Source: Verrucomicrobiia bacterium (GTDB lineage Bacteria > Verrucomicrobiota > Verrucomicrobiia > Palsa-1439). From it: a DNA stretch of 64,000 bases. Location: the NCBI GenBank assembly GCA_050015495.1, contig JBEKBH010000007.1, positions 43,061-107,060 on the forward strand, written 5' to 3'. The translations under genes were made by a program, and so were the position numbers. Below the pieces are notes generated by a model that saw only the letters and a program-made list of their open reading frames with translations, was not told the origin of the DNA and did no database searches. This document shows, piece by piece, positions 15,289 to 45,512 of this stretch; the stretch's first letter is position 1, and each line of letters starts with the position of its first letter.

Positions 15289-15309
15289 GGTTGATGAAAC
15301 GTGCGAAGC

Positions 15310-15333
15310 GTGGGAGGGGCCTCAGCGCCCCGA
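15310..15333 (+). repeat. REP-like hairpin GTGGGAGGGGCCTCAGCGCCCCGA
   Basis: GTGG tag + GGGGC/GCCCC stem; inverted partner at 15857-15880. Confidence 0.85.
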
Positions 15334-15343
15334 TCTGTCTGTG

Positions 15344-15847: not shown

Positions 15848-15856
15848 GGCATACGC

Positions 15857-15880
15857 TCGGGGCACTAAGGCCCCTCCCAC
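15857..15880 (-). repeat. REP-like hairpin GTGGGAGGGGCCTTAGTGCCCCGA
   Basis: Reverse complement matches 15310-15333 at 22/24; begins 2 nt after the hpnO stop. Confidence 0.85.
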
Positions 15881-15882
15881 AT

Positions 15883-17301: not shown

Positions 17302-17410
17302 AACGGCGTGAGTTTATCGCGCTGGCGGCGGCGGTTCAAGCCTGGAACCATCGGCCAAAATCCACGCTGGAAAGACGTTTATCTCCGTGCTAGATTTTGA
17401 GGAGATCAAT

Positions 17411-17989
17411 ATGAAGAGATGGATTGCATGGATGGCTGCGATCTCGGTGGGGTTTGCCCTCGCCGTCGACGCCCGTGCGCAGACCTTTGAGCCCGCGGCC
17501 ACAGATTCCGCTGACCAATCGCCGGCGTTGCGGAAGGTGTTTTCCGACAAGCCGTTCTTCGGCACCCAACGCGTGCTGACGCTCAATGGCAGCTATATCA
17601 ACACCCCGACAGAGAACCTCGAGCAGACCGGTTCGTGGGACGCGTGGGGCATGCCCCTGTCCCTCGACGAAATGCACGGCATGATTGGGGAAATCTCCTT
17701 TGGCGACGCCGCCAAGCAGGGCCAGTGGCAACTCTCCTATCGTTACAAGTTGATGACCATGGACAGCGAGTGGGCGGCGATTGCGGATTCGAACGGCGGC
17801 TTGACTCTCTCGGATCGCCGCTCCCAGGTGCTCAAGGCCAGCTACAATGTCCGGGACTGGTGGAAGGTCGGGCTGGCGGCGGTCGTGGAAGACCGGTCGG
17901 GTATTGACCCCACCATCGATCCGGGAACGTTCGGCTTGACCAGCCGCGAATCCCTCGGCTTCCAGATCGACGCGTTGCTGAAATTCTGA
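17411..17989 (+). CDS. Short secreted protein resembling the C-terminal half of a putative porin
   Basis: GGAG RBS, signal peptide, alternating beta-strands (WQLSYRY, VLKASYNV, WKVGLAAV) and C-terminal QIDALLKF. Confidence 0.65.
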   Translation: MKRWIAWMAAISVGFALAVDARAQTFEPAATDSADQSPALRKVFSDKPFFGTQRVLTLNGSYINTPTENLEQTGSWDAWGMPLSLDEMHGMIGEISFGDAAKQGQWQLSYRYKLMTMDSEWAAIADSNGGLTLSDRRSQVLKASYNVRDWWKVGLAAVVEDRSGIDPTIDPGTFGLTSRESLGFQIDALLKF

Positions 17990-18109
17990 CGCGGCCAGTT
18001 TCGGCCGGTCGACGATCTGCACAGTCCTTCCCGTTTTCCCAGTAATCGGTTGTCGTTTCACCATCGGCCTGTTAGAAATCGGATCCGAACGCGCGCTGAG
18101 AGAACGATC

Positions 18110-19687: not shown

Positions 19688-19697
19688 GGCCGTTCAC

Positions 19698-19733
19698 CAC
19701 GAAGTACACGAAGCAGACACGAAGGGCACGAAG
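19698..19733 (+). repeat. Four CACGAAG units at 9-11 nt period
   Basis: Read directly; two related units occur on the minus strand at about 31581-31597. Confidence 0.85.
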
Positions 19734-19754
19734 ACGGCGAGGCCGGGGCGCTGA

Positions 19755-19782
19755 CCCGGCCTTCGCTGAAGCTACGGCGGGC
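19755..19782 (+). repeat. REP-like imperfect palindrome CCCGGCCTTCGCTGAAGCTACGGCGGGC
   Basis: Hairpin-forming intergenic motif; single copy in this window. Confidence 0.5.
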
Positions 19783-19827
19783 GATGAAGCGAGGGGGAAG
19801 AGTGAGGAGGTGGCAGGATGTCCGGAG

Positions 19828-19927
19828 GATCGCTGATACCTAGTAGTACTAGGCATCGGGCTGACGCACGATACATTGCACTGCAATGTATCGCGGGGGG
19901 GGGCGGGCAAAGCACGAGCGCGGGAGA
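19828..19927 (+). repeat. Dispersed element X, copy 1 (core palindrome CGATACATTGCA-C-TGCAATGTATCG at 19869-19893)
   Basis: Aligns by eye at roughly 80% with the reverse complement of 33776-33883. Confidence 0.88.
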
Positions 19928-20048
19928 TCATCGGCAAAGAACCGGGTGACCAATCGCAATTATAGAAGTGTGGGAGGCAGTGGGCTTATTGAGGTCTCAT
20001 CATTCACCCTGACATGCTGCAAGCGCCGCCTGAACCGTAGCCTCTCGG

Positions 20049-20354
20049 TCACTTCGGCTCGGCACGCTGCTTCCAGTAATCCGGGCGTCTCTTAGCATGG
20101 GCAATGGCTGCGATCCAAATCGCGTTGGGCCGTTGCATATAGAAGATCGAATACGGGAAGCGTTCCACCAGATACTTTCGAAATCGCGGGTCAACATGCG
20201 ATGGCCATGCTTGCGGGCTTTGTTGAATCTTCCGGAATGCCTGCTCGACACTGGCGAGGAAGTCCAATCCCAAGCCTGACACTTTGGATTCGTAGTAAGC
20301 GATCGCGCCATCCAATTCGGCTTTCGCCAACGGATGGACGAGGAGGGGTTTCAC
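20049..20354 (-). CDS. RelE/ParE-family type II toxin
   Basis: VHPLAKAELDGAIAYYE..GLGLDF..RKYLVERFPYSIFY..IAAIAHAKRRPDYW; GTG start overlaps the antitoxin stop. Confidence 0.9.
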   Translation of the reverse strand: MKPLLVHPLAKAELDGAIAYYESKVSGLGLDFLASVEQAFRKIQQSPQAWPSHVDPRFRKYLVERFPYSIFYMQRPNAIWIAAIAHAKRRPDYWKQRAEPK

Positions 20355-20581
20355 GAGTATTTGGCGCGCATTTCCCGCAGGAGTTTTTCCGCCGGCTCGC
20401 CGGTGACACGACCGCTTTGAATCTCTTCGGCCCGCCGCTTCAACTCCTCGTCCCACGCCGCGGCAACGCCCTGTTCTTCGTCGCCATCCAGCGATTCGAT
20501 GAGGAACCGAACCAGCTCCGCGCGGTCGTCGGGCGTGAGGCCCGCCAACTCCGATTTCATGCGCTCCGCTTTCGCCGTCAT
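20351..20581 (-). CDS. Addiction-module antitoxin (putative, TIGR02574-like)
   Basis: LTPDDRAELVRFLIESLD..AAWDEELKRRAEEIQSG; translationally coupled to the toxin. Confidence 0.88.
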   Translation of the reverse strand: MTAKAERMKSELAGLTPDDRAELVRFLIESLDGDEEQGVAAAWDEELKRRAEEIQSGRVTGEPAEKLLREMRAKYS

Positions 20582-20814
20582 GCCAGTAGTTTGCTCCGTT
20601 CCCCGGCTTCCGTCAACTGTGCACTGTGGTTCTTCCATGCGGTCACGTGAAGACGGATACCTTCGGTCGATTGCTGTGCGGGGTCGGGAGATTGCCGCAA
20701 AGGAACGGAGCGGCGTTTGCGACCGGGGCAAGACGTGGCCGCGTCTCGCGGACTCGGCTCCGTCGGACTCGGCTCACGCACAACCAGGCTTGCCCGTCGA
20801 ATGGGGGGTGCACT

Positions 20815-20900
20815 TTTTTTGATCTGTCATCGGAATTTTATGGACAAGTGATATACGGTAGCGTATAGTCGGGGCGTTTTGGGTTGTTTGACATAGGGGG
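20815..20900 (+). promoter_or_regulatory. Dispersed element Y, copy 1, with sigma70-like promoter TGGACA(20841)-N17-TATAGT(20864)
   Basis: About 85% identical by eye to the reverse complement of 31611-31695; hexamers and 17-nt spacing are conserved. Confidence 0.82.
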
Positions 20901-20937
20901 GGAATGCAGGAAACGACGGGCGGTGAGGCCGGGGACG

Positions 20938-20962
20938 CGGCTCGCCGGGAGGCTCGCCCTCC
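20938..20962 (+). repeat. REP-like CGGCTCGCCGGGAGGCTCGCCCTCC
   Basis: Identical 25-mer on the minus strand at 31351-31375; GGGAGG/CCTCCC stem. Confidence 0.88.
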
Positions 20963-20984
20963 CAAATGCAGCGGGGCGGCCGGT

Positions 20985-21009
20985 CCGCGTTTATGAAACG
21001 CGGCTACAA
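20985..21009 (-). repeat. GTAG-type REP hairpin TTGTAGCCGCGTTTCATAAACGCGG
   Basis: TGTAGC tag + 8-bp stem/3-nt loop; related copies at 31320 and 31555. Confidence 0.8.
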
Positions 21010-21056
21010 ATGGCGACCTCGAGGAAACAGGGTTGCGCAAAAAGGGGGAAATTGCG

Positions 21057-21155
21057 AAACGAACCCACCGATATCGGATCGAAACTACGTGTGGATGTGA
21101 TTGTGGGAGAGGTTGTTGGAAAAACACGGGTCGCGTTTTTTCGGTGGGTTCGTTT
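21057..21155. repeat. Perfect 15-bp inverted repeat AAACGAACCCACCGA / TCGGTGGGTTCGTTT around a 69-nt spacer
   Basis: Arms at 21057-21071 and 21141-21155. Confidence 0.85.
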
Positions 21156-21260
21156 GGGTTCGGTCGGCTGGTTGCCGAGGCGTTTCGGTGTGCCGGCGAT
21201 GGTTTATCACGTCATTTCTGGCGCGTTCCGGCACCGCGTCGGGCAACCGGGGGAGGCTGA

Positions 21261-22070
21261 CTAGATCGTTTGGGCGAGGAATCCGCCGTCGACGCAGATG
21301 TCCGCGCCCGTCACAAAGCTGCTGGCCTTCGCGCTGGCGAGGAACACGACCGCGCCGATCAATTCCTCGCTGTTGCCGAGTCGTCCCATCGGCGTGTGGT
21401 CGAGGATCAACCGGGCACGCGGCGTCGGCGAGCCGTCCTTGTTGAACAGGAGCGCGCGATTCTGGTCGGCGGGGAAGAATCCCGGGGTGATCGAGTTCAC
21501 GCGGACGCCGTTCCTGGCCCATTCGTGCGCGAGAAACCGCGTGAGGTTCAGCGCGGCTGCTTTCGCCGCCGAGTACGCGACCACGCGCGACAGCGGCAGG
21601 TGTCCCGAGACGCTGGCGATGTTGATGATCGATCCGCGGCCGCGTTTCGCCATCGCCGATCCGAATTCCTGGCAGGGCAGGAGTACGCCGCCGACAAGGT
21701 TGAGGTCGAACACCGCGGCCCAATTGGCGTGGGGAATGTCCTCGAACTTCAAATCGGGTGTGACGGTCGCTTTCGGGTCGTTTCCGCCGGCGGCATTCAC
21801 CAGGATCGTCGGGCACCCGAGTGAGTTGGCAATATGCTCGTGGGCAGCGCGGAGACCGTCGCGTTTCATCGCGTCGGTCGCGAAGAATCGCGCTGTTCCG
21901 CCCGATTTTTTGATGGCACGGACGCGAGCTTCCCCGCGTTCGGGATTGCGGCCAACCACGGCCACCGCAGCGCCGGCGGCGGCCAATCCTTCCGCCATGG
22001 CTCCGCCGAGCGCGCCCGTCCCTCCGATCACCACGGCGACTTCGCCGGTCAGGTCAAACAAATTTGTCAT
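21261..22070 (-). CDS. SDR-family oxidoreductase (sugar/sugar-acid dehydrogenase, UxuB/Gno-like)
   Basis: GGTGALG, NAAGG, YSAAKAA, VRVNSITPGFF. Confidence 0.88.
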   Translation of the reverse strand: MTNLFDLTGEVAVVIGGTGALGGAMAEGLAAAGAAVAVVGRNPERGEARVRAIKKSGGTARFFATDAMKRDGLRAAHEHIANSLGCPTILVNAAGGNDPKATVTPDLKFEDIPHANWAAVFDLNLVGGVLLPCQEFGSAMAKRGRGSIINIASVSGHLPLSRVVAYSAAKAAALNLTRFLAHEWARNGVRVNSITPGFFPADQNRALLFNKDGSPTPRARLILDHTPMGRLGNSEELIGAVVFLASAKASSFVTGADICVDGGFLAQTI

Positions 22071-22176
22071 GGCATCATTCTCGTTTCACGATCAAGCGGC
22101 ACTCGTCCACGCAACGCCCGCGCGGCACAAATTGTCTTCTTGCCTCGCGCCCGGCGAGTCCGTAAGGTTTCGCCCG

Positions 22177-22875
22177 ATGCGCGTGGCGCTCTTCATCCCC
22201 TGCTTCATCGACCAACTCTTCCCCAACGTGGGAATCGCGATGGTCACCGTGCTCCGTCGGCTACAGGTCGAGGTGGATTATCCACCCGACCAAACCTGCT
22301 GCGGTCAACCGGCATTCAACACGGGCTATTGGGACGAGGCCCGCGCGCTCGCGAAGCGGTATTGTGAAATTTTCGCCGATGCCGATGCTATCGTCAGCCC
22401 GTCCGGTTCGTGCACGGCCATGGTTCGAAACTTCTACCCCGAACTCCTCGGCAAAGCAACGAAAACGACGGCGCATACCTACGAGTTTGCCGAGTTCCTC
22501 GTCAAGAAGCTGGGGGTAACGGACGTGGGCGCGAAGTTTCCCGGGCGCGTGACCTATCATGACTCCTGCCACGCGCTCCGCGAACTCCGCTTGAAAGACG
22601 AGCCGCGCCAACTGCTGCGGCGCGTGCAGGGCCTCGAATTGGTCGAAATGGACCAGGCGGAGACCTGTTGCGGGTTTGGCGGAACGTTTTCGGTAAAATT
22701 CCCGATGATCTCGTATGCGATGGACGAAGTGAAGGTCACCTCGATCCAGAAAACCGGGGCCGAGTACGTCGTCTCGACGGATTCGAGTTGCCTGATGCAA
22801 ATTGACGGCTACCTGCGGCGCCAGAATCTGCCGATCAAAACCATCTCGCTGGCGGAGGTATTGGCGGCGACATGA
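22177..22875 (+). CDS. lutA: Lactate utilization Fe-S protein A (CCG domains)
   Basis: QTCCGQPAFNTG, YHDSCH, CCGFGGTFSVK. Confidence 0.9.
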   Translation: MRVALFIPCFIDQLFPNVGIAMVTVLRRLQVEVDYPPDQTCCGQPAFNTGYWDEARALAKRYCEIFADADAIVSPSGSCTAMVRNFYPELLGKATKTTAHTYEFAEFLVKKLGVTDVGAKFPGRVTYHDSCHALRELRLKDEPRQLLRRVQGLELVEMDQAETCCGFGGTFSVKFPMISYAMDEVKVTSIQKTGAEYVVSTDSSCLMQIDGYLRRQNLPIKTISLAEVLAAT

Positions 22876-24266
22876 CGACGGCGGCCCGGTTGCAATTCGA
22901 GCACGACGCGACGGTCAAGACCGGCGACCTGCGGCATCGCGCTGTCATCCAGAAGAACATCGGCACGTACGAAATCGCGGTGGCGAAAGGCAAGACGCGA
23001 TTTGCTGACTGGGAGAACGCCCGCTCGCACGCCGCCGCCATCAAATGGGAAACGATCAATCATCTCGACCGTTACCTCGAACAATTCGAGCGGAACGTGC
23101 TGGCGAACGGCGGCCATGTGTTCTGGGCGGAGACGGCCGAGGACGCGCGCGGTCACGTGTTGGAATTGGCGCACCGCCATGGCGTCCAGAAGGTCGTCAA
23201 ATCCAAGTCGATGACGACCGAGGAGATCCATCTCAACGCGGCGCTCGAGGCCGCGGGCATTCGTTCGATCGAGACCGATCTTGGCGAGTACATCTGCCAG
23301 ATCCGCGGCGAACATCCCTACCACATCGTCACGCCAGTCATGCACCTGACGAAGGCGGATATCGCCCAGACGTTCCAAGAGAAACTGGGCACGCCGCTTA
23401 CCGAGAGCGCCGAGGAATTGACCATGATCGCCCGCGCGAAGTTGCGGCGGGAGTTTATGACGGCGGACATGGGCATTACCGGAGGCAATTTCGCAATTGC
23501 CGACACCGGAATGATCGCGCTGACCGAGAACGAGGGCAACGCGCGCCTGAGTTTTTCGCTGCCGCGCGTGCACGTGGCCATCGTGGGCATCGAGAAATTG
23601 ATCCCGTGCCTGGAAGACCTGGCGTTGCTCTGGCCGTTGCTCGCGGCCAGCGCCACGGGACAGGCGATCACGGCGTACAGCTCGCTGATCGGCGGCCCGC
23701 GGGGGGAACGCGAAGCGGACGGTCCACAGGAGTTTCACGTCATCCTGCTCGACAACGGCCGCACGCGGCTGCTGGCCGACGTGGAACAGCGCGACGCGCT
23801 CCATTGCATCCGTTGCGGCGCATGCCTGAACGCGTGCCCGGTTTACAAGAACATCGGCGGCCATGCGTACGGCACGACGTATCAGGGGCCCATCGGCTCG
23901 GTGATCACGCCGCACCTGCGCGATGCGCAGGAGTGGTCCCATCTGCCGTACGCCAGTTCGTTGTGCGGCGCGTGTACGGACGTGTGCCCCGTGCGGATCG
24001 ATTTGCACCATCACCTGCTCCACAACCGGCGCAACGCGGTCCGGAGCGGGTTTGACAGCCTTGTCCAGCGTTTCGGTTTTCGCGTCTGGTTGTGGGCCAT
24101 GCAATCCCCGGGGCGCTACGCCATCGCGGCGAAGCTCGGCAACTTCGCGTTGCGACGGGGCATGGCGGGACGCCTGTTGAAACCGTGGACCGCCCGCCGC
24201 GATTTTCCCGTCCCGACCAAACAGAGCTTCAAAGAGTATTGGAGGCAGCATGGACGTCGCGCGTGA
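22872..24266 (+). CDS. lutB: Lactate utilization Fe-S protein B
   Basis: KSKSMTTEE, ETDLGEY, CIRCGACLNACPVY, SSLCGACTDVCPV. Confidence 0.93.
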   Translation: MTTAARLQFEHDATVKTGDLRHRAVIQKNIGTYEIAVAKGKTRFADWENARSHAAAIKWETINHLDRYLEQFERNVLANGGHVFWAETAEDARGHVLELAHRHGVQKVVKSKSMTTEEIHLNAALEAAGIRSIETDLGEYICQIRGEHPYHIVTPVMHLTKADIAQTFQEKLGTPLTESAEELTMIARAKLRREFMTADMGITGGNFAIADTGMIALTENEGNARLSFSLPRVHVAIVGIEKLIPCLEDLALLWPLLAASATGQAITAYSSLIGGPRGEREADGPQEFHVILLDNGRTRLLADVEQRDALHCIRCGACLNACPVYKNIGGHAYGTTYQGPIGSVITPHLRDAQEWSHLPYASSLCGACTDVCPVRIDLHHHLLHNRRNAVRSGFDSLVQRFGFRVWLWAMQSPGRYAIAAKLGNFALRRGMAGRLLKPWTARRDFPVPTKQSFKEYWRQHGRRA

Positions 24267-24828
24267 AAATATTCTTCGGCGCGTTCGTGCCGGGTTGGCT
24301 GTCGAGGCGCATCGACCGCTTCCGCCTACGGACGCGCCCGTTTTCCCGGCGGTCGCCGACGTTGAGAGCCGGTTCCGTGCGGAATTTGCAGCGGTGCGCG
24401 GCGAGATCATCGAGGATGACGCGGCGTTGCGCACGTTCTTGAATGGTTTTGCGAAAATCGCCACGGATGGCGGGGAATTGACGACCAAAGCCGTCGGTGA
24501 GCCAAACGCCAGTGTTCGCGAGTGTGATCTCGGGGTAACGGGGTGCGACTGCCTCGTGGCGCAAACCGGCTCGATTGTCGTCTCGACGCTCTCGGCGGGT
24601 GGTCGAGCGTTGTCGGTACTGCCGCCAACCCACCTCGTCATCGCCCGGCAAGAGCAGATTGTTCCCGATTTGTCATCGGCCTTGGCGCTGCTGCACAAAC
24701 GCTACGACAGACACTGGCCGAGCGCGCTTTCCGTGATTACCGGACCGAGCCGCACGGCCGACATCGAGAAGATCCTGGTAATGGGTGCCCACGGCCCGAA
24801 GCGGTTGGCGCTTTACTTTGCGGATTGA
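24250..24828 (+). CDS. lutC: Lactate utilization protein C (LUD domain)
   Basis: ITGPSRTADIEKILVMGAHGP. Confidence 0.92.
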   Translation: MDVARENILRRVRAGLAVEAHRPLPPTDAPVFPAVADVESRFRAEFAAVRGEIIEDDAALRTFLNGFAKIATDGGELTTKAVGEPNASVRECDLGVTGCDCLVAQTGSIVVSTLSAGGRALSVLPPTHLVIARQEQIVPDLSSALALLHKRYDRHWPSALSVITGPSRTADIEKILVMGAHGPKRLALYFAD

Positions 24829-25919
24829 GCGGGCTCGAGCAGGTCAACGTCCACGATGCGCTCGGGCTGTTCCGGTTTGTGTGAGGTCGGCGATTTGGGA
24901 TTCTGTATCGGCTCGCGTTTGCGCCACCGGGGCGCAAAATAAAAGCCGAGCACCAATGCCGCCGCAATCAACTGCGCCAGGATCGTCTCGGTGGTCGGGA
25001 AGACGGAGAACCAGACTCCCATCCACGCGGGGATGACATCGACCAGCGGGCGAATCGGGGTGGCTGGAATCCAATGGGCCAGTTGCATCTCCTGGGCTTG
25101 TTCGCCAACCATGACGAGCAACACAAAGCCGAGCATGATCCCGGTTAACACGAGCATTCTTCGATAGGGCAGTTGTCGATGCGCAACGAACGTGAGGACC
25201 GCAACGATGCCGGTGAATAACAGCCCGAGCAGCGCCCCTTCGAGCACGAGTTTCCCGCCCATTCGCAGATAGTAGCTTTGCAGGAAGAGCACCACTTCAA
25301 ATCCCTCGCGATACAGCGAGGCGAATCCCAGCAGGCACAACCCGCGCAGGAGACGAGCTCGGGATATCTGCGCGCGGCCGGCGTTGAGGAGCAGCTTCTT
25401 CTTCGTCTTGTTGTGCATGGAGATCCAACCACCCCAGTAGACCTTGTGGAAGAACCAATTCATAACGACCAACAGGACGACGACCGCCAGCAACCCGGTC
25501 GCGGCCTGAAGGTTCAGCGCCGAGATGCTTGAGGACAGATCATTGACAACCGTCACAGCAATAAGCCAGGTGGCGAGCGTCGCCATAAACCCGATTCCCG
25601 CGCCAACGGCAATCGGACGCCGATAGGCCTGCTGGCCGCCCACCATACTGGCCGTGATTGCGGAGAGCACCAAAATGCACTCCAGTCCCTCGCGGAACAC
25701 GAGTACCCCAATGTCGAGCAACGCAACCGTCGGGCTGAGGTGCGGAGCGGTAGGGTCCGGGTTGCCCCTGGCCGTGACCCCCTGCCAGATCAGGACGCCG
25801 GCCACAAGCGCCGCGCCGGCCAACAAAAGAAAGCGAAGACCCGCGCGTTTTCGCCTGGCCCTGAACCACGTCACGGGCCGGGGCAAACCGACTGCTTCCT
25901 GGATTGAAGATTTTCCCAT
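24813..25919 (-). CDS. FTR1-family iron permease
   Basis: Two REGxE motifs (FREGLE, YREGFE); multiple TM helices. Confidence 0.9.
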   Translation of the reverse strand: MGKSSIQEAVGLPRPVTWFRARRKRAGLRFLLLAGAALVAGVLIWQGVTARGNPDPTAPHLSPTVALLDIGVLVFREGLECILVLSAITASMVGGQQAYRRPIAVGAGIGFMATLATWLIAVTVVNDLSSSISALNLQAATGLLAVVVLLVVMNWFFHKVYWGGWISMHNKTKKKLLLNAGRAQISRARLLRGLCLLGFASLYREGFEVVLFLQSYYLRMGGKLVLEGALLGLLFTGIVAVLTFVAHRQLPYRRMLVLTGIMLGFVLLVMVGEQAQEMQLAHWIPATPIRPLVDVIPAWMGVWFSVFPTTETILAQLIAAALVLGFYFAPRWRKREPIQNPKSPTSHKPEQPERIVDVDLLEPAQSAK

Positions 25920-25948
25920 CGTGAACCTGTGTTACCTGCCTACTTTCA

Positions 25949-26368
25949 TCACTCCAACAGGGCTGCGATCTCCTGAACGTGTTCCGTCTCCACGCTGATC
26001 TGTTTGCGGATGAAATCCTCGAGCATCGTATCGCCGGTCACACGCGGTAACACTTCCTTGTACGCGTCCAGTGCCTGGCGTTCGACCTCCAGCATCTCGG
26101 CGAGCGCGTCCTGCAAATTCGTCGGGCCGCCGCGCAACTCCAACTCGATCTTGATCTGCGGGATATGGCCGAGCACGCGAATCTGTTTGGCAATCGCCTC
26201 GGCGTGCTCCAGCGTCTCACGCGTGCCTTCGTCGAACAACTTCTCCGCCGCCAACCGATCGACCCCGCGCAGGCGGTATTTCATCTGAAAGTAACGGAGA
26301 AACGCCTCCAATTCCTCCGCCATCAGGCGATTCAAGTCCTCGACAATTTCGCTGCGGTCCGTCTTCAT
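25949..26368 (-). CDS. Ferritin-like (bacterioferritin-type) di-iron protein
   Basis: EELEAFLRY..ETLEHAE..EVERQALDAY..ETEHVQE pattern; ATGA overlap with the regulator. Confidence 0.82.
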   Translation of the reverse strand: MKTDRSEIVEDLNRLMAEELEAFLRYFQMKYRLRGVDRLAAEKLFDEGTRETLEHAEAIAKQIRVLGHIPQIKIELELRGGPTNLQDALAEMLEVERQALDAYKEVLPRVTGDTMLEDFIRKQISVETEHVQEIAALLE

Positions 26369-26895
26369 AGGCTCGCGTGCTGCAATTCCTCGATCAGGCA
26401 ATGGCCGTGGCACACTTCGCACGTCTTGCTATCGGGGCATTGATCGTGAAAATCCCTGAATCGCGCGAGCACCTGCTTCGCGAGCGGATCCCCCGAAATA
26501 AGGAACCTCATGAAATGGACCAGTTGTTCGCCTGTGGGCTGGCTGATCAGATGCTCGACCTTGCAACTGTCGATTTCCGCCTGCGGTTCGGGAACGTTGA
26601 GGACATTACTTAGAAATGCTTTCACGACGGCCTTCTTGGCCATCACGGTTTGCACGGCTTTCTGGCCTTTCGGGGAAAGCTTCACCATGTGGTGCTCGTC
26701 GGTATCGACCCATCCGCGTTTCTTGAGCGCCCGCAAGTTGATGGACACGCTGCCGCGCGTGATGCTCAACTCGCGGGCGATGTCGGAGACGCGAGCCCAG
26801 CCGCCGTATTCGAGACCGACCTCGTAAATGGCGAGGAGATGATGAGCGGCGCTGTGAGTCAGCTCATTGGCCTCGAATTCCTTCCACGTTTCCAT
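26365..26895 (-). CDS. DtxR/MntR-family metal-dependent repressor with Cys-rich tail
   Basis: SAAHHLLAIY, ARVSDIARELSITRGSVS (HTH), DSCKVEHLIS; C-terminal CPDSKTCEVCHGHC. Confidence 0.88.
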   Translation of the reverse strand: METWKEFEANELTHSAAHHLLAIYEVGLEYGGWARVSDIARELSITRGSVSINLRALKKRGWVDTDEHHMVKLSPKGQKAVQTVMAKKAVVKAFLSNVLNVPEPQAEIDSCKVEHLISQPTGEQLVHFMRFLISGDPLAKQVLARFRDFHDQCPDSKTCEVCHGHCLIEELQHASL

Positions 26896-26919
26896 GACTG
26901 ATGGATTTATACGACACTT

Positions 26920-26935
26920 GTTTGGCATGTCAAAC
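26920..26935. promoter_or_regulatory. Candidate DtxR/MntR-type operator GTTTG-GCATGT-CAAAC
   Basis: Palindrome 25 nt upstream of the regulator start; 10/14 match to the box at 39695. Confidence 0.5.
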
Positions 26936-27047
26936 AGAAAACGGATAATTTTTGTCCGCTTATGATTTGGCACTCGCCGCTTCACAAATCACTTCCCCAA
27001 ATATGGACGACCCAGTATATTGCGCTCAACCGTAAGGAGGTTGTGGG

Positions 27048-27944
27048 GTGGAGCAACTGATCGATGCTTTTCTCGATCATCTGACCGTCGAGCGCGGACT
27101 CGCGTCCAACACGCGCGCCGCCTATCGCGCTGATCTTGCCCAGTTTGCCGATTTCCTCCATCGCCGCGGCGTCGAACATCTGAACGACGCCCAGCGCCAA
27201 CTCATCACGGAGTATTTGCTGCACCGGCGCAAAGGCGGCCTGAGCCCACGGAGTCTTTCCCGCCACCTCGCCGCGATCCGCACGTTTTGCCGGTTCCTTT
27301 CCCGCGAAAAGCTTCTCGTTGCCGATCCCACACAGACGATCAATTCGCCCAAGCTGTGGCGCACCCTTCCCCACTCGCTCGATTACGAAGAGGTCGGGCG
27401 GCTGCTGGCCGCGCCCGACACGCGCACCAAGCTCGGTGTGCGCGACAAGGCGATGCTGGAATTCATGTACGCCACGGGATTGCGCGTCAGCGAAGTTACC
27501 CACATCAAGCTCAGCGACATCAATTTCGAGGCCGGCTTCCTGCGTTCGCTTGGCAAAGGCAGCAAGGAACGCATCGTCCCCATCGGGAAACAAGCCATTG
27601 ACTGGACGCAGCGTTATCTCCACGAAGCGCGCGGATCGTTTGCCGGGGCCGACAGTATCGGCGAAGTGTTTCTCTCGACTCGCGGCCGGCCGCTCAGCCG
27701 AAAAACCATCTGGGTGCTCATCAAAAAATATGCGCGCCGGGCCGGCATCTCGAAAAACATCACGCCGCACACGTTGCGGCATAGCTTTGCCACCCACCTC
27801 CTCGACAACGGCGGCGACCTGCGCGTCATCCAAGAAATGCTCGGCCACGCCGACATCTCGACCACGCAAATCTACACGCACGTCGACCAGCAGCGCCTGA
27901 AAGAGACACACTACCGTTTCCATCCCCGTTCGGGGCGACGGTAA
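27048..27944 (+). CDS. xerD: Site-specific tyrosine recombinase XerD
   Basis: AAGGAGG RBS; YATGLRVSE, GKGSKERIVP, PHTLRHSFATHLL, MLGHADISTTQIYTHV. Confidence 0.93.
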   Translation: MEQLIDAFLDHLTVERGLASNTRAAYRADLAQFADFLHRRGVEHLNDAQRQLITEYLLHRRKGGLSPRSLSRHLAAIRTFCRFLSREKLLVADPTQTINSPKLWRTLPHSLDYEEVGRLLAAPDTRTKLGVRDKAMLEFMYATGLRVSEVTHIKLSDINFEAGFLRSLGKGSKERIVPIGKQAIDWTQRYLHEARGSFAGADSIGEVFLSTRGRPLSRKTIWVLIKKYARRAGISKNITPHTLRHSFATHLLDNGGDLRVIQEMLGHADISTTQIYTHVDQQRLKETHYRFHPRSGRR

Positions 27945-28082
27945 AATCGCCCAAAATTAACGCTCGATTTTTGGAAAGCCGTTCGGTAGGCTTGCTGTCG
28001 CAGCAGTTGGATTTTGCGCCCTGAACAGCAAGGTGGTTCGGGGCGGCAACATCCCCCTGCACGCGAAGGCGACGCGGCAATC

Positions 28083-28802
28083 ATGCATTCTCAAAAGTTG
28101 CAGAAGATTATCGGCCACGAGTTCAAGGATTACGAGCTGCTCGTGGAGGCTCTCACCCATCCGTCCATTGCGCACGAGCGCGGGAGCGAGTGCAACCATC
28201 ACAACCAGCGGCTGGAATTCCTCGGCGACGCGGTCTTGCAACTCGTGCTCACCGACCGCATCTACAAGCTCTACCCGGACCTGCCCGAGGGCAAGCTCAC
28301 GCAAATCCGCGCCCATCTGGCCAATCGCCACACGCTGTTTCAGCGCGCCCAAGCCATCGATCTGGGCAGCCACCTGATGCTCGGCAAGGGTGAGGAAGCC
28401 AGCGGCGGTCGCGAGCGGCTGTCCAACCTGGCGGACGCCTACGAGGCCCTGCTCGGTGCGATCTATCTCGACGGCGGGCTGCGCGCCGCCCGTAAATTTA
28501 TCTTCGCGCAGTTTGCCGAGGAGTTTTTGAATATCAAGCAAACGACCCCGCGCCAGAACCCCAAAGGCCGATTGCAGGAATTACTTCAGGCCCATTCCTC
28601 GAATGGTCCCATTTACCGCGTCGTCCACGAATCGGGGCCGGACCACAGCAAGTATTTCGAGGTCGCCGTGGAATGGGAGGGGCGCGAGATCGGTCGGGGA
28701 AATGGTTCCAGCAAGAAGCAGGCGGAAACGGTCGCTGCGGAAGCAGCCTTGGCGGCGTTGCCGGAGATCATGGCGGGTACCAATGCGCCCGCGCTCCCCT
28801 GA
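28083..28802 (+). CDS. rnc: Ribonuclease III
   Basis: NQRLEFLGDAVL signature, ADAYEALLGAIYLDGG, dsRBD (NPKGRLQE..GSSKKQAE). Confidence 0.96.
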   Translation: MHSQKLQKIIGHEFKDYELLVEALTHPSIAHERGSECNHHNQRLEFLGDAVLQLVLTDRIYKLYPDLPEGKLTQIRAHLANRHTLFQRAQAIDLGSHLMLGKGEEASGGRERLSNLADAYEALLGAIYLDGGLRAARKFIFAQFAEEFLNIKQTTPRQNPKGRLQELLQAHSSNGPIYRVVHESGPDHSKYFEVAVEWEGREIGRGNGSSKKQAETVAAEAALAALPEIMAGTNAPALP

Positions 28803-28804
28803 AC

Positions 28805-29182
28805 CTACGGCCGCGGCGGTTGAGCCGACGATGCCGTCGGCGCGACCTGCAGGCCATGCTTCGCGAGCAGCCCCATCAACTCCGGCTTCCCGGAGCTGTA
28901 CTGAACCAACGCCTTGACCAGAGAATCCACGGAATGTTCATTGGCTTCCAATCGCGCGATCTGACGTTCGTGAAGAGCCATCCCCGCAACAAGGTTGCGG
29001 TTTTGCTTGTAGACAAACGCCGTTAACGCCAGGCTCACAACCAGCAGCCCAATCCCCAACCCGCAGACCAGGTTGCGCAATTGATCGATCGCCGTCGCGA
29101 CATCGATCCGCGCTTCAACCGCAGGCGTCGCCCTCAAGCTGGTTTCGGTCGATTGGCTCTCCATCTCCTCACGTGTGCTCAT
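28805..29182 (-). CDS. Small single-TM hypothetical protein
   Basis: TM LVCGLGIGLLVVSLALTAFVY + coiled coil; start estimated. Confidence 0.6.
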   Translation of the reverse strand: MSTREEMESQSTETSLRATPAVEARIDVATAIDQLRNLVCGLGIGLLVVSLALTAFVYKQNRNLVAGMALHERQIARLEANEHSVDSLVKALVQYSSGKPELMGLLAKHGLQVAPTASSAQPPRP

Positions 29183-29192
29183 CGAATTCCTC

Positions 29193-29516
29193 TCATGGTT
29201 GCGCGGGCTTGCGGGCCGCCGCAGCCGCCGATGCGTTGGCTGCCTGGGTTTGTGCCTGGGCTTGCCTGAATATCTGTGTGATCTGCGGGTCTGTATTGGC
29301 CCGCACGGCGAAGTCCTGAAGAAGTCCCTGGATGGCTTGCCCTCGCAGCTCCAGTTGCTGAACCTGCATGTCGGCACGCATGGCGTCGCGGTAAACCTCC
29401 ACGTAGTGCATCACGACGTAAATATTGAATATCACCGAGATCCCCAGCACGATGCTCCCGTACTGGACCGCCGTCTGAAAAGTTTTCTCTTTCACTTGCG
29501 CTCCTCTCCCGCCCAT
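29193..29516 (-). CDS. Small single-TM hypothetical protein, probable paralogue of the downstream gene
   Basis: TM YGSIVLGISVIFNIYVV + coiled coil; start uncertain (possibly GTG about 29495). Confidence 0.55.
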   Translation of the reverse strand: MGGRGAQVKEKTFQTAVQYGSIVLGISVIFNIYVVMHYVEVYRDAMRADMQVQQLELRGQAIQGLLQDFAVRANTDPQITQIFRQAQAQTQAANASAAAAARKPAQP

Positions 29517-29926
29517 CGCTCCAACAATTCAAACAATTCGGACACGTTAAACGGCTTCTCCATAAACGCTGCCGCCCCCTCCCGCATCATCTCCTCCCGC
29601 GTCACGCCCAACGACCGGTACTCCCCGGACATCAGCAACACCCGCTTGGCCGACTTGGCCCCGAGGATCGCCTTCATCGCGTCCACTCCGTTCATCCGCG
29701 GCATCGAGATATCCATCACCACCACGTCCGGCTGCAATTCCTTGGCCAGCGAAACGGCTTCCATCCCGTCCCTGGCCTTGCCAACGATTTCATGGCCGGC
29801 GTACGCGATCGTGTCGGCCACCACGTCGCACACCGTAGGTTGGTCGTCCACCACCAGCACACGCAACTTGTTGCCGTCGGCTGACACCCCTGTTTCCTCC
29901 CGTGAAGCTCCCGTATCTATTCCCAT
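29492..29926 (-). CDS. Stand-alone CheY-like response regulator
   Basis: VLVVDDQP, VMDISMPRMNG, MSG, EKPF. Confidence 0.88.
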   Translation of the reverse strand: MGIDTGASREETGVSADGNKLRVLVVDDQPTVCDVVADTIAYAGHEIVGKARDGMEAVSLAKELQPDVVVMDISMPRMNGVDAMKAILGAKSAKRVLLMSGEYRSLGVTREEMMREGAAAFMEKPFNVSELFELLERWAGEERK

Positions 29927-30105
29927 AGGTCCTTTTCGCGGGCGCAATCTACCGATTCGCCACGCGCATTGCAAGCCCGCGATTCTGCCTTCGGCCCCCA
30001 ATGTTGTCCACAAGAATACTTGACACCCCGCACCCCATGCTTGCCAACCATCGCCCCTTGTTCTATCCTCCGACCGCGTGGTTCGTTCACCCGCGGGAGG
30101 TCAAT

Positions 30106-31311
30106 ATGAAGATCCTGATCGCCGACAAGTTTTCCGAGAACCACCTCGATCGCCTCAAGAAACTCGGCTGCGATGTCACCTACAACGCCTCCGCCAAGGC
30201 CGAAGACCTTCCCAAGCTGGTCGGTTCCAGCAAAATCCTCGTCGTCCGCAGCAAACAGGTCAACGCCGACACCATCCAGGCCGGCGATCAACTCGCCGTC
30301 ATCCTCCGCGCCGGCGCGGGCGTCAACACCATCGACGTCAAAGCCGCCAGCGCCCGCGGCGTGTACGTCACGAATTGCCCCGGCAAAAATTCCGTGGCCG
30401 TCGCCGAACTCGCGTTTGCCCTCCTGCTGGCCATCGACCGCCGCGTCCCCGACAACGTCGCCGCCCTTCGTGCCCATAAATGGAACAAGAAAGAATTCAG
30501 CAAAGCCGACGGCATCCACGGCAAGACGCTCGGCGTCATCGGCATCGGCCAGGTCGGCCGCGAGGTCGTCAAACGCGCCCATGCCTTCGGCCTCCGCGTC
30601 ATGGCTTGGTCGCGCTCGCTCAACCTGCCCAAGGCCCGCGAACTCAACGTCGAGTATTGCCCTGATCTCGACACCATTTTCCGCCGCGCCGACATCATTT
30701 CCCTGCACGTCGCGCTCAAGCCCGACACGAAAAAGCTCGTCAGCGCCGACCGCATCGCGATGATGAAACCCAACGCCATCCTCATCAACACCGCCCGCGG
30801 CGAGGTCGTCGACCAGACCGCCCTGCGCGCCGCGCTCGAAGCGAAACGGATTCGGGCCGGCCTCGATGTCTTCGATCCCGAACCCGCCGAAGCCACCGCC
30901 GAGTTCTCCGACCCGATTCTCGACCTGCCGAACCTCTACGGCACGCACCACATCGGCGCGTCCACCGAACAGGCCCAGGACGCCATCGCCGAGGAAGCCC
31001 TGCGAGTCATCGAGACCTACCTCAAAACCGGCGTCGTGCTCAACTGCGTGAACCTCGCCACGCGCACCCCCGCCAAATGGCAACTCATCGTCCGCCATTA
31101 CGACCGCGTCGGCGTGCTCGCCTTCGTCATGGACCAGATCCGCCGCGCCAATACCAACATCGAGGAAGTCCAGAACATCATCTTCGACGGCGCCACCGCC
31201 GCCTGTTGCCGTATCCAACTCGACATCGAACCCGGGGCAAAACTTCTCGCCGCCATCAAGGACGGCAACCCCGACATCATCAGCGTCGAATCCCTGCGCA
31301 TCGGGGAGTGA
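30106..31311 (+). CDS. serA: D-3-phosphoglycerate dehydrogenase-like D-2-hydroxyacid dehydrogenase with ACT-like C-terminus
   Basis: GGAGG RBS; RAGAGVNTID, GVIGIGQVG, INTARGEVVD, HHIGASTEQAQ. Confidence 0.8.
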   Translation: MKILIADKFSENHLDRLKKLGCDVTYNASAKAEDLPKLVGSSKILVVRSKQVNADTIQAGDQLAVILRAGAGVNTIDVKAASARGVYVTNCPGKNSVAVAELAFALLLAIDRRVPDNVAALRAHKWNKKEFSKADGIHGKTLGVIGIGQVGREVVKRAHAFGLRVMAWSRSLNLPKARELNVEYCPDLDTIFRRADIISLHVALKPDTKKLVSADRIAMMKPNAILINTARGEVVDQTALRAALEAKRIRAGLDVFDPEPAEATAEFSDPILDLPNLYGTHHIGASTEQAQDAIAEEALRVIETYLKTGVVLNCVNLATRTPAKWQLIVRHYDRVGVLAFVMDQIRRANTNIEEVQNIIFDGATAACCRIQLDIEPGAKLLAAIKDGNPDIISVESLRIGE

Positions 31312-31319
31312 CCCCACCG

Positions 31320-31344
31320 TTGTAGCCGCGAATCTCATTCGCGG
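31320..31344 (+). repeat. GTAG-type REP hairpin TTGTAGCCGCGAATCTCATTCGCGG
   Basis: 8-bp stem/3-nt loop. Confidence 0.8.
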
Positions 31345-31350
31345 AGCATT

Positions 31351-31375
31351 GGAGGGCGAGCCTCCCGGCGAGCCG
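31351..31375 (-). repeat. REP-like copy identical to 20938-20962
   Basis: GGAGGGCGAGCCTCCCGGCGAGCCG on the plus strand. Confidence 0.88.
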
Positions 31376-31456
31376 AAATTCTGCGTCAAATGACCCACAA
31401 AACACCCTTCAGCCTGCGTCCAGCGCCGCCCATCGCGCCCTGCACCACCCCCCAAT

Positions 31457-31530
31457 TTGGGTTCGTTTTTGGCTTTGTTTTGGTAACTTTTCCACGCCGG
31501 CTTGATTAGAAATGGGTTCGTTTCGCAAAA
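31457..31530 (-). repeat. Two direct AAACGAACCCA motifs about 55 nt apart
   Basis: TGGGTTCGTTT at about 31458 and about 31513 on the plus strand; same motif as at 21057. Confidence 0.75.
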
Positions 31531-31554
31531 ACACCCTTTTTTGTGAAGTCCCCT

Positions 31555-31580
31555 TTGTAGCCACGGCACTGCGTGCCGTG
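31555..31580 (+). repeat. GTAG-type REP hairpin TTGTAGCCACGGCACTGCGTGCCGTG
   Basis: Same tag and stem/loop geometry, different stem sequence. Confidence 0.75.
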
Positions 31581-31610
31581 CTTCGTGCCCTTCGTGGTTC
31601 AATCCCCTTC

Positions 31611-31695
31611 CCCTCATATCAAACAACCCAAGCCGCCCCGACTATACCCTGTCGCATACCACTTGTCCATCAAATTCCGATGACAGGTCAAAAAA
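31611..31695 (-). promoter_or_regulatory. Dispersed element Y, copy 2, with TGGACA-N17-TATAGT
   Basis: TGTCCA at 31664-31669 and ACTATA at 31641-31646 on the plus strand. Confidence 0.82.
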
Positions 31696-31744
31696 CGTCC
31701 CACGCCGTCTCCGCTGCAGCCGCGGGCGCTGAACACAGCCCCGC

Positions 31745-32025
31745 CTCTCCCACCCGAATTGTAGGCCTTGTCCGCCTCAGGCGGATTGCCAGCCTCCGGC
31801 GGGGCAACCGACCCGGTCGCCGTCGTGGTCGCCCCTCCGTCTCTCCGAATTGTAGGGCCGCCAAGCCCGCAGGGGTTCGCGCCGAACCACTGCCCTCGTC
31901 GCAATCCCCGCCCTGAGCTTGCCGAATGGGTCGAACGGGTTCCTCCCCTGCCTGCTCCGAGCGGAGTCGAAGAGCCCGCTTTGTGCGCGACATCGCCAGC
32001 GCAGCCTCCTGACTCCTGAATTCTG
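31745..32025. repeat. Cluster of additional palindromic/REP-like motifs (CCGAATTGTAGG x2, CCCTGAGCTTGCCGAATGGG, CTCCTGA heptamers)
   Basis: Read directly in a roughly 550-nt non-coding stretch. Confidence 0.6.
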
Positions 32026-32253
32026 TTCCCCCTCTGTCTGCCGTAGCGTATCCGGCTGATGGCCTACGTCTTTGAGGTTGGTTCTTGAGCGGATGGCTCG
32101 AACGAAGATAGCAATGCCGAAGATTTCTTGGAGCGACGGCAAAGGCTCAGAATCGGCTTGTCGGCATTGTCAACGGTGATACTGTAAGCGCTCGTCCGAC
32201 TGAATGGTCGGCAATAGTGCGGGGCGTAGGCCATATGGGAACTGTCGGCTAAG

Positions 32254-33759
32254 ATGGAATCCCAAACCAAGGCACGAAGTTTTACGTCGGAACTTTTCCG
32301 CTTCCGTCGACAGTGGATTGTGGGTGCGGGTGTAACCACAGTGAACCCAGCATGGCAGAGCCTGGATCTGTCGAGCGGACACACGTTAACTTACCATCCA
32401 GACGTGAGGATCTCTGCCCGTCGGGAGGGCAACAGGCAAATTGTGGTCCTGGGCGTTGCGACACACACGGCAGCAAGTCAAACACCACCTTTGTCAGTCA
32501 TTGACAAACTGGACCGCGAGTCGATTGTTCGGTGGCTTCTTCGCTTGGCCGGTCGGTATGTCGTACTTTTCTCGGAAGGTGAGAATCTGTATCTTTACAC
32601 GGACCCGGCAGGGATGATGGGGATTTTTCATACGTGCGCCAAAGCGGCCTCTACCCCAAGTCTCCTCCTTCGAGGAGAGGATCAAGAGATTGCCGATACT
32701 GGCATCCGCCGGGAACTTGAAGAAAACTTCTTTCCTGGGACGATGTGCGCGCATAGCGGCGTGGACGCTCTGATGGCCAACCACGAACTCCACCTGAATA
32801 GTGGCGTTACGCGGCGCTTTTGGTCACCGTCCCCCGGCCCGAGAGGCGACAAACCACCGATTGACGAAATGTGCGACTTACTACAGCGAATCGTAGATGG
32901 ATTTCGCTCATCGGGTCAATTGTTGGTCTCTTTGAGTGGTGGAAGAGATAGTCGTGTCATCTTGGCGGCAGTACGAGCGTTCGCTGCCGAGGTGCGATTC
33001 TTCACGATTCAGAAGCCTCATTCCAACAACAGGGATGCAAGATACAGCAGACAACTTGCTGTCACCTTCCAATTGAACCACGAGGTCCTACGGTCACTGT
33101 CGCCGCCCCAATGGGTAACATCAGCTTATGACGAGATCGGAAGCGGAATGCTACGCGCCCGGTCGCGCCCCGAGCTTGATGGGCTTCGGAAAATCAACAC
33201 CTCAGGTTGTGTTCATGTCGGGGGAGTCGGTGGCGAAGTGCTCAGGGCCCACCTATGGCCATCCCAACGACCCAAAAGAGCGGACACCATGAAGCTGACC
33301 CGCCAAGCGTTTTCCTGCGCGCCACCTTCTGTCCTCGATGCGGTCGGCCAATGGCGGAGAAGCCTGCCCCTCGACACGTCGCCTCCCACGGTGTTTGACT
33401 TATTCGAATTCGAACAGCGGAGCGGTCGCTCCGCCGGGATTGTTGAGGCGTGCTCGAGCCTCTTCCACGAAACCGCACCGCCCTTCAATAGCCGCGAACT
33501 CTTCGAGTTGATACAGTGCGTCCCATTGGAAATGAGATATGCGGGCAAGTTGAATGCCGCCCTCATCCGAACCATGTGGCCACAGCTATTGGAGGTGCCC
33601 CTTACCCAACGCGGGAGGCCCTGGTGGAAATCGTTGCCAAAGCCGGTGAAGGCTGCCGTGAAGAGATTACGCTGGTTCTCTGTTCGAAGTCGTCCATCAG
33701 GCTCCCCGTTCATTCATTATCGCAACGAACGACGTATTGCGTCCGGGGTCAGACACTGA
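32254..33759 (+). CDS. Asparagine-synthase-related (PP-loop) protein, orphan cargo gene
   Basis: SLSGGRDSRVIL PP-loop, GGVGGEVLR, PPFNSRELFE; N-terminal GATase-like remnant without an N-terminal Cys; appears lower in GC than its flanks. Confidence 0.72.
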   Translation: MESQTKARSFTSELFRFRRQWIVGAGVTTVNPAWQSLDLSSGHTLTYHPDVRISARREGNRQIVVLGVATHTAASQTPPLSVIDKLDRESIVRWLLRLAGRYVVLFSEGENLYLYTDPAGMMGIFHTCAKAASTPSLLLRGEDQEIADTGIRRELEENFFPGTMCAHSGVDALMANHELHLNSGVTRRFWSPSPGPRGDKPPIDEMCDLLQRIVDGFRSSGQLLVSLSGGRDSRVILAAVRAFAAEVRFFTIQKPHSNNRDARYSRQLAVTFQLNHEVLRSLSPPQWVTSAYDEIGSGMLRARSRPELDGLRKINTSGCVHVGGVGGEVLRAHLWPSQRPKRADTMKLTRQAFSCAPPSVLDAVGQWRRSLPLDTSPPTVFDLFEFEQRSGRSAGIVEACSSLFHETAPPFNSRELFELIQCVPLEMRYAGKLNAALIRTMWPQLLEVPLTQRGRPWWKSLPKPVKAAVKRLRWFSVRSRPSGSPFIHYRNERRIASGVRH

Positions 33760-33775
33760 CTCTTGGCATTATTTC

Positions 33776-33883
33776 CCCGCGCTCGCGCTTTGCCTACACT
33801 CCCCACGCGATACATTGTAGTACAATGTATTGTGCGTCAGCCCAACGCCTCCTACTACCAGATATTCAGATATTAGCGATTCC
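33776..33883 (-). repeat. Dispersed element X, copy 2 (core palindrome CGATACATTGTA-G-TACAATGTATTG at 33808-33832)
   Basis: Inverted homologue of 19828-19927 with a compensatory change in the palindrome. Confidence 0.88.
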
Positions 33884-33916
33884 GCTCCGTCCTCTGTCTT
33901 CGGGCGTCCGTCCTCC

Positions 33917-45384: not shown

Positions 45385-45512
45385 AGAAATTTTCCCAGTG
45401 TCCGCAAGCCCGGTGTCCATAAGTTGAGTCGGGCAACGTCAAGAACTTCACACCAAGTTTACGCTAGACTACGGCAGGGGAAACCGTAAAGTCAATTGAC
45501 AGAATCGACCCT

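Follow-up and report, generated by a model that had tools for sequence, protein, structure and literature searches.

Bacteria commonly have small hot spots of gene turnover between their core genes, and the features that define them are usually unclear. Here we examine two loci, A and B, in a 64,000-nucleotide stretch of a Verrucomicrobiia genome (GTDB lineage Palsa-1439; assembly GCA_050015495.1, contig JBEKBH010000007.1, positions 43,061 to 107,060; this whole stretch is hereafter the window), which share three non-coding modules that we call X, Y and Z. Among described systems, integrons come close to this arrangement, with attC sites that each form one R''-L''...L'-R' hairpin, and so do the documented CALINs (attC-site clusters without an integron-integrase), which are integron arrays without an adjacent integrase, recognised by at least two same-strand sites less than 4 kb apart (PMC4889954). 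Repetitive extragenic palindromes (REPs) and bacterial interspersed mosaic elements (BIMEs), mobilised by the Y1 transposase RAYT, are imperfect, GTAG-headed palindromes of 20–40 nt present in many copies per genome, and repeats resembling miniature inverted-repeat transposable elements (MITEs; for example, Correia/NEMIS, ERIC, RUP and BOX) are intergenic, clade-specific units of 100–200 nt that can hold promoters or terminator-like hairpins. The pdif modules of Acinetobacter plasmids are small, often carry toxin–antitoxin genes and are bounded by short palindromic sites of 28 bp with an XerC–spacer–XerD layout, set in alternating orientation around each module, with housekeeping Xer (XerC/D) supplied in trans; palindrome-associated transposable elements (PATEs) derived from IS200/IS605 have similar subterminal hairpins at both ends and go with a Y1 TnpA gene in the genome; and Tn7-like elements and repeat-motif small RNAs (CsrB/RsmZ and CrcZ type) share further traits with the loci. 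Judged by the defining features of these systems, the pattern at loci A and B does not fit integrons, MITEs, IS200/IS605 derivatives or Tn7-like elements, and appears not to fit REP/BIME or pdif. An initial annotation, made from the sequence alone, had recognised no named insertion sequence (IS), MITE or integron. That annotation had proposed a cassette-like element with X and Y as its two ends, mobilised in trans; we find a single two-ended cassette transposon to be only partly supported, and X and the combined Y–Z unit are real modules, so far undescribed, that look like boundaries of hot spots of gene turnover.

The comparison set comprised 25 syntenic loci (L010–L034) from metagenome-assembled genomes (MAGs) of relatives, with further loci numbered likewise; the RNase III encoded in the window is 89–97% identical to homologues in peat, bog and palsa Verrucomicrobiia MAGs. 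Locus A is a 1.56-kb insert between an FGGY kinase gene (xylB) and an SDR gene, and locus B lies between a serA-like 2-hydroxyacid dehydrogenase gene and a VOC/glyoxalase-family gene. Both loci share X and Y in the order and orientation first annotated, with Z following Y, as listed here in window positions (CM, covariance model; HMM, hidden Markov model; dot, no strand assigned):

19690–19790 (.), REP-type repeats, comprising cacgaag units plus a GC hairpin, between the xylB stop codon and X of locus A, read directly; repeats of these types are also present at locus B and in relatives
19813–19982 (+), X of locus A, with hairpin 1 at about 19832–19859, hairpin 2 at 19869–19893 and a G-rich tail; CM 123.9 bits, tail HMM match
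20049–20354 (−), ParE-family toxin of cargo A; PF05016, gene call in L133
20351–20581 (−), Unstab_antitox antitoxin of cargo A; PF09720, TIGR02574
20812–20900 (+), Y of locus A, with a T-tract, −35 box TGGACA (20841–20846), 17-nt spacer, −10 box TATAGT (20864–20869) and conserved start region GGGTTGTTTGA, reading toward the SDR gene
20915–21010 (.), REPs between Y and Z of locus A, one hairpin with a GGCTACAA (GTAG-type) head
21054–21163 (+), Z of locus A, M2 type: GCGAAACGAACCC, 79 nt and GGGTTCGTTTGGGTTCGG, forming a 16-bp inverted repeat
31312–31380 (.), REPs adjoining the serA stop codon
31440–31545 (−), Z of locus B, M1 type: a direct pair of AAACGAACCC motifs enclosing an invariant core, CAAGCCGGCGTGGAAA
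31610–31698 (−), Y of locus B, the same promoter module with −35 at 31669–31664 and −10 at 31646–31641, reading toward serA
32254–33759 (+), AsnB-like (asparagine-synthase-related) gene, cargo B, with its last 27 codons in the X tail
33715–33885 (−), X of locus B, a double palindrome (hairpin 2 at about 33810–33832) and tail; CM 124.2 bits, tail HMM match

The X copies align as two inverted-repeat pairs (19836–19900 with 33801–33865, 65 nt, 85% identical; and 19896–19924 with 33776–33804, 83%) and the Y copies as another (20812–20900 with 31610–31698, 89 nt, 85%), the Y pair and the X pair being the two longest inverted repeats of the entire 64-kb window. Core patterns of X and Y each have two exact matches in the window (0.01 and 0.00 expected, respectively), and low-stringency BLAST revealed no further copy of either there. 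The Z motif AAACGAACCC occurs five times in the window against 0.14 expected, with four occurrences inside loci A and B; the fifth (59338) falls within an ATPase gene and is probably due to chance. The cargoes are accessory genes, unrelated to each other as first annotated, with a G+C content of 55–58% against 60–66% in the flanks. Cargo A is a parDE-like type II toxin–antitoxin pair in which the ParE toxin gene overlaps the upstream antitoxin gene by 4 nt (PF05016 and PF09720). The limits of the toxin reading frame move from 20000–20311 to 20049–20354 (−). Gene maps of the window and its flanks contain no transposase or integrase besides a housekeeping XerD, again as the initial annotation had stated for the two loci.

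X is a unit of 130 nt (up to 190 nt in L016) that holds two related hairpins of the shared form GATAC-NNN-GTAGTAC-NNN-GTATC (hairpin 1, GATAC-CTA-GTAGTAC-TAG-GCATC; hairpin 2, GATAC-ATT-GTAGTAC-AAT-GTATC), followed by the conserved G-rich tail. The covariance model places the two window copies at 19813–19949 and 33751–33885, and the tail HMM continues them to about 19982 and 33715; the stop codon of the AsnB-like gene (33757–33759) therefore sits inside X rather than some 15 nt before it, as had been supposed. Across 807 kb of related DNA, searched with the HMM and the covariance model, we found eight full copies (two in the window, three in L016 and one each in L010, L013 and L017), besides a degenerate copy in L012 and a lone hairpin 2 in L026. 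The latter (15318–15341) precedes a low-G+C gene between serA and glnE (L026:13560–15000, − strand), which we take, by eye from its sequence, to encode a KAP-type P-loop NTPase. Tail-only remnants beside cargoes without X were not found, save for a weak one in L018. The copies of X are 75–90% identical over at least 130 nt, pairing is kept in 93.4% of cells (a score reached by 0 of 500 shuffles) and two positions of hairpin 2 change on both sides (T:A in four copies versus G:C in four; and C:G, T:A or T:G), with 15 G-U pairs versus 2 A-C mismatches on one strand.

Each of the eight copies lies just 3' of an accessory gene, next to its stop codon and on the strand opposite to it, in one orientation throughout. 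In L016, X is repeated once per gene, in an array of three gene–X units with copies at 16286–16418, 18236–18368 and 19852–19967, all on the − strand, each after a + strand open reading frame (ORF) and less than 2 kb apart; the genes encode an apiosidase-like glycosidase, a beta-lactamase-fold protein and a collagen-repeat protein.

Y and Z form a second unit. Both Y copies carry TGGACA-17-TATAGT directed away from the cargo, within sequence whose conservation begins with a T-tract near −60 and extends to about +20, and Y is, as predicted from these elements, a sigma-70 promoter that would fire outward through Z, up to the core gene. Y is the predicted promoter of a Y–Z unit reaching the core gene, not the element end that had initially been proposed. 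Z, which lies downstream of Y after inserted REPs, is a cluster of AAACGAA(C/G)CC motifs in two forms. M1 (window B, L010, L013, L015 and L125) holds the motif in two or three direct copies that surround an invariant core, AAACGAACCCAAGTTT..TCAAGCCGGCGTGGAAA, about 35 nt long, and M2 (window A, L013, L014, L016 and L131) consists of GCGAAACGAA(C/G)CC, 79–80 nt and GG(C/G)TTCGTTT, forming a 16-bp inverted repeat. The M2 spacer is constant in length and not in sequence, and the 16-bp helix covaries (C:G in the window, G:C elsewhere; a score attained by 1 of 500 shuffles). In L016 (13400–13700, − strand), (A)AACGAACCCGAGAAT is repeated six times in tandem at 21–22-nt spacing, forming an iteron-like array between serA and the M2 module.

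With its predicted strong stand-alone promoter and a putative non-coding transcript bearing several short A/C-rich motif copies, Y–Z resembles the repeat-motif small RNAs of the CsrB/RsmZ and CrcZ type, a likeness drawn from sequence alone; unlike in those RNAs, the Z motif also occurs inverted (as the 16-bp helix), and Y–Z stands at the edges of variable blocks at four sites and not at one conserved locus. The exact Y pattern has no match in 185,579 species genomes, and in JGI metagenomes it matched the same locus only (L005), five other hits being due to chance. A literal motif search of papers returned one unrelated primer only. Viral contigs yielded no match to the X hairpin, and 26 viral loci matching the Z doublet were rejected as unrelated iteron-like or coding repeats; five low-G+C, unrelated phage contigs (L093, L099, L110, L112 and L097) carry three or four AACGAACCCAATTTTGGAGGGT copies at 22-nt spacing, probably replication iterons that share a 9-mer by chance. 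Logan short-read contigs of the same species end at about 21138, inside Z of locus A at the M2 stem (L135 and L136), or begin at about 31567, at the REP between Y and Z of locus B (L002 and L003), breaks that are expected if these sequences are repeated or strongly hairpin-forming.

Comparison with relatives reveals the loci as insertions or variable blocks between conserved genes, as the initial annotation had placed them. At locus A, three relatives (L013, L011 and L033) have an empty site in which the xylB stop codon is followed by 15 nt and the SDR stop codon. At serA, L011 has serA, REPs and a gene for a 188-aa protein, where L013 has serA, M1, M2, a promoter, IS110, an IS630 fragment, BACON-domain genes, X and the same gene. 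On the serA side of this L013 block, the IS110-family gene (14265–15314; NF033542, 209 bits) stands directly beside the M1–M2–promoter module and is followed by a DDE_3 (IS630-type) gene (207 aa, 16458–17081); apart from this ordinary IS110 and the IS630-type gene, we found no recombinase near the elements. The block in L131 has its empty site in the window (45431–45463). Every contig with identical SDR or serA proteins, examined for presence or absence within the species, carries the same insertions. Z, with or without Y, adjoins a core gene at four genomic sites: the 3' end of serA (six genomes), xylB|SDR, PPDK|proB and PALP|Fer4.

Breakpoints among these alleles coincide with module edges. 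L017 and L018 are 97% identical in the flanks on both sides, and the segment in which they differ is bounded exactly by the edges of both palindromes of X: in place of about 75 nt of L017 that hold both X hairpins, L018 has 3.9 kb with an astacin-type metalloprotease gene, the X tail being kept and the opposite junction lying at GATC. The closest relative of the AsnB-like gene (L119; 85% amino acid and 86% nucleotide identity) is at another locus, which lacks X, Y and Z. The homology covers 32252–33678 only and breaks off 81 nt short of the stop codon, at the start of the X tail, so that the last 27 codons of the window gene come from the X tail. The ParE–antitoxin block recurs in L125 and L131 (88% nucleotide identity), with homology that begins some 50 nt upstream of the ATG, so as to take in a TTGACG box of its own, and runs to 3–10 nt past the stop codon, and adjoins Z of types M2, M1 and M2 at its three loci.

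The modules also occur apart. X is present without Y or Z in L017; Y–Z stands with cargo and without X in L014 (a TPR protein) and L015 (MazF and a TIR-like gene); and Z adjoins the ParE–antitoxin pair without X in L125 and L131. X, Y and Z thus recur around variable genes yet also separately, and so look like reusable boundary modules rather than transposon ends or the obligate partners that X and Y had been taken for. The initial annotation had named two observations that would speak against its model, namely X and Y occurring independently and the same cargo occurring without them, and each was found in part, because the modules occur apart and the cargo homologues in L119, L125 and L131 lack X. 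Two further features were seen at loci of the ParE–antitoxin block. In L131, the 66-nt promoter region that precedes the Fer4 gene (window 45465–45530) is present in two copies (13706–13771 and 16796–16861), and these enclose a second inserted segment, which encodes an 827-aa oxidoreductase. In L125, which is from the same MAG as L010, a TrwC-type relaxase gene (912 aa) and an HTH_17 excisionase-like gene (15215–18658) lie about 5 kb from the Z–ParE–antitoxin block and could be an integrated mobilisable element.

The explanation that we favour, tentatively and with a little less than even confidence, is that loci A and B are flexible-genome islets built with separable, clade-specific non-coding modules, X marking sites of exchange and Y–Z the edges. 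Such islets would be small blocks of accessory genes lodged between conserved genes in this lineage of peat Verrucomicrobiia. Y–Z would act as one unit at the edge of a variable block, with Y on the inner side reading outward through Z to the core gene, and would most likely produce a non-coding RNA or serve as a protein-bound edge element, or both. X, repeatable once per accessory gene in fixed orientation, may be recognised by a sequence-specific trans factor and mark the places of DNA exchange, and genes would be gained, lost and replaced via recombination at or beside the modules.

Several points weigh against this explanation. For the modules we saw neither a protein partner nor a recombinase or excision product, and the block edges carry no direct or inverted repeats of at least 8 nt, that is, no target duplication or terminal repeats. 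The relatives are represented by MAG contigs throughout, in which misassembly at repeats is possible. Four of the five loci with both X and Y–Z are the orthologous serA site, so that the fixed order amounts to about two independent cases, and the serA and SDR junctions vary also in relatives without X, Y or Z (locus A of L015, L018 and L019–L026), which indicates that hot spots exist independently of the modules. The free energies of the two X strands are alike, and structure cannot separate duplex DNA, single-stranded DNA and RNA as the form in which X would act; M1 has no conserved fold; and a strict promoter match upstream of Z is found at four of nine loci (window A and B, L010 and L015), with weaker hexamer pairs, by eye only, in L013, L014 and L016 and no convincing promoter in L125 and L131. 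Finally, REPs with the TTGTAGCC head are, within the window, restricted to loci A and B, so these sites gather ordinary repeats too, and the co-occurrence of X with Y–Z could partly reflect a shared permissive site.

One alternative is that X, Y, Z and the REPs are unrelated intergenic repeats, REP/BIME- or MITE-like, that pile up where insertions are tolerated, between convergent genes, and have no role in gene capture, the X–cargo–Y order then being coincidence together with shared ancestry at serA. We regard it as doubtful, though more probable than the other alternatives. Beyond the separability of the modules, the cargo homologues without X and the junctions that vary without modules, it draws on the REP head TTGTAGCCRCG, whose three exact matches in the 64 kb all fall within loci A and B. 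X resembles REP/BIME in its intergenic palindromes and in the GTAG of both its loops, canonical GTAG-headed REPs fill the same islets, and the preferred site is likewise between convergent genes; unlike REP/BIME, X measures 130–190 nt with long conserved non-palindromic parts, appears low-copy (two in 64 kb; eight in 807 kb), is tied to accessory genes and has a single orientation. The modules share the length, intergenic position, clade specificity and possible promoter or hairpin content of MITE-like repeats, and M2 has the 16-bp inverted termini and fixed-length interior of a MITE, with no duplication evident; X differs in having, by alignment, no terminal inverted repeats and no target duplication, and its strict orientation to the upstream gene is unexpected for MITEs. 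Against a mere accumulation of repeats stand the consistent orientation of X beside stop codons (8 of 8) and its per-gene array, the L017/L018 breakpoints exactly at the X core, an identity among X copies that lies far above what a simple hairpin needs, and the presence of Z beside the same ParE–antitoxin pair at three different loci.

We consider it unlikely that the loci are an integron-like cassette system, with X as a per-cassette site (an attC analogue), folded or bound by a recombinase encoded elsewhere, and Y–Z as a fixed platform beside which single genes with their X sites are stacked. It would be an integrase-unlinked system new to Verrucomicrobiia, functionally analogous to integrons and built from unrelated parts. 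Like the sites of integrons and CALINs, X is a structured site (about 60–140 nt in those systems) directly 3' of an ORF and can form tandem gene–site units on one strand; the L016 copies have CALIN-type spacing, with less than 4 kb between same-strand sites that each lie 3' of an ORF, the hairpin positions covary, the ends are conserved around a variable middle across genomes, the cargoes are unrelated and include toxin–antitoxin pairs, and arrays without a neighbouring integrase are known as CALINs (PMC4889954). Yet the consensus fold of the eight X copies is two separate hairpins plus a tail rather than the single imperfect hairpin of attC, without R-boxes, and conserved GTTRRRY/RYYYAAC boxes are lacking (GTTRRRY is absent from X of locus A and occurs once, not conserved, in X of locus B). 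Gene maps of the window and flanks hold no IntI gene, and the only tyrosine recombinase, encoded between the loci, is an XerD equivalog (378 bits, cut-off 329.6); as an integron integrase it was rejected (144 bits, cut-off 265). Further differences from integrons are the lack of attI, a Y promoter that faces away from the cassettes, gaps of 340–375 nt from X to the next ORF, cargo beside Y–Z without X (L014, L015, L125 and L131) and, in L018, a 3.9-kb gene in the place of X with no flanking X.

The same XerD is one point of likeness to pdif modules, in which small units, often toxin–antitoxin pairs, are likewise bounded by short palindromes. The odd-centred palindromes of X are unlike dif arms, there is one X per module with a different element at the other boundary, and no sequence in the window matches the dif core within three mismatches, the core used being of the E. 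coli type, which may not be that of this lineage.

That X and Y are the ends of one non-autonomous transposon moved as a unit in trans, the model of the initial annotation, now appears very improbable. The whole of locus A (X, toxin–antitoxin pair, Y and Z) is missing at the orthologous site in three relatives, and A and B agree in order and strand, both in favour of the model; the ends, however, occur separately, neither target duplication nor terminal repeats are found, Y is internal to Z and not terminal, and the ParE–antitoxin homology extends no more than about 50 nt beyond the genes, which are joined to M2, M1 and M2 at their three loci. X-type hairpins stand at one edge only, unlike the paired hairpins of PATEs, and the X edge and the Z edge share no similarity. 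The L016 locus resembles a Tn7-like end in its array of short motifs at 21–22-bp spacing by the 3' end of serA, with variable cargo behind; unlike in Tn7, with its inverted transposase-binding repeats at both ends, the Z motifs are on the core-gene side only and there is no terminal TGT or 5-bp duplication, and none of the loci examined has tns (tnsABC) genes. The last alternative, in which the Y–Z transcript would serve an RNA-guided recombinase (for example, the L013 IS110) as a guide in the manner of a bridge RNA or omega RNA and direct cargo exchange at X, is the least probable, since the outward reading of the transcript to the block edge and the IS110-family RNA-guided transposase directly beside Z in L013 are outweighed by X to Y–Z complementarity that never exceeds 9 nt in five loci, IS110 at one of nine Z loci, an unstructured M1 and the lack of any Rfam match at gathering score in the window (chance-level only, E ≥ 0.1, at loci A and B).

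Elsewhere in the window, an AAA_15/AAA_21 ATPase gene (388 aa) followed by a gene for a DUF4276 protein (217 aa; together 58918–60737) has the look of a module for anti-phage defence and lies away from any X, Y or Z, and a metallo-beta-lactamase-fold gene (53560–54354) also matches the Anti-Pycsar Apyc1 family PF23023 in the precomputed gene table.

The hot spots described here bear recognisable conserved modules, one at the block edge with a predicted outward promoter and one after individual accessory genes. If these modules act in gene exchange, they would represent a second, integron-independent way of organising single-gene cassettes and would provide a sequence handle for the flexible genes of Verrucomicrobia that live uncultured in soil and peat. 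As mere passengers, they would still constitute a repeat family not described before, together with a candidate locus for a small RNA that current annotation overlooks.

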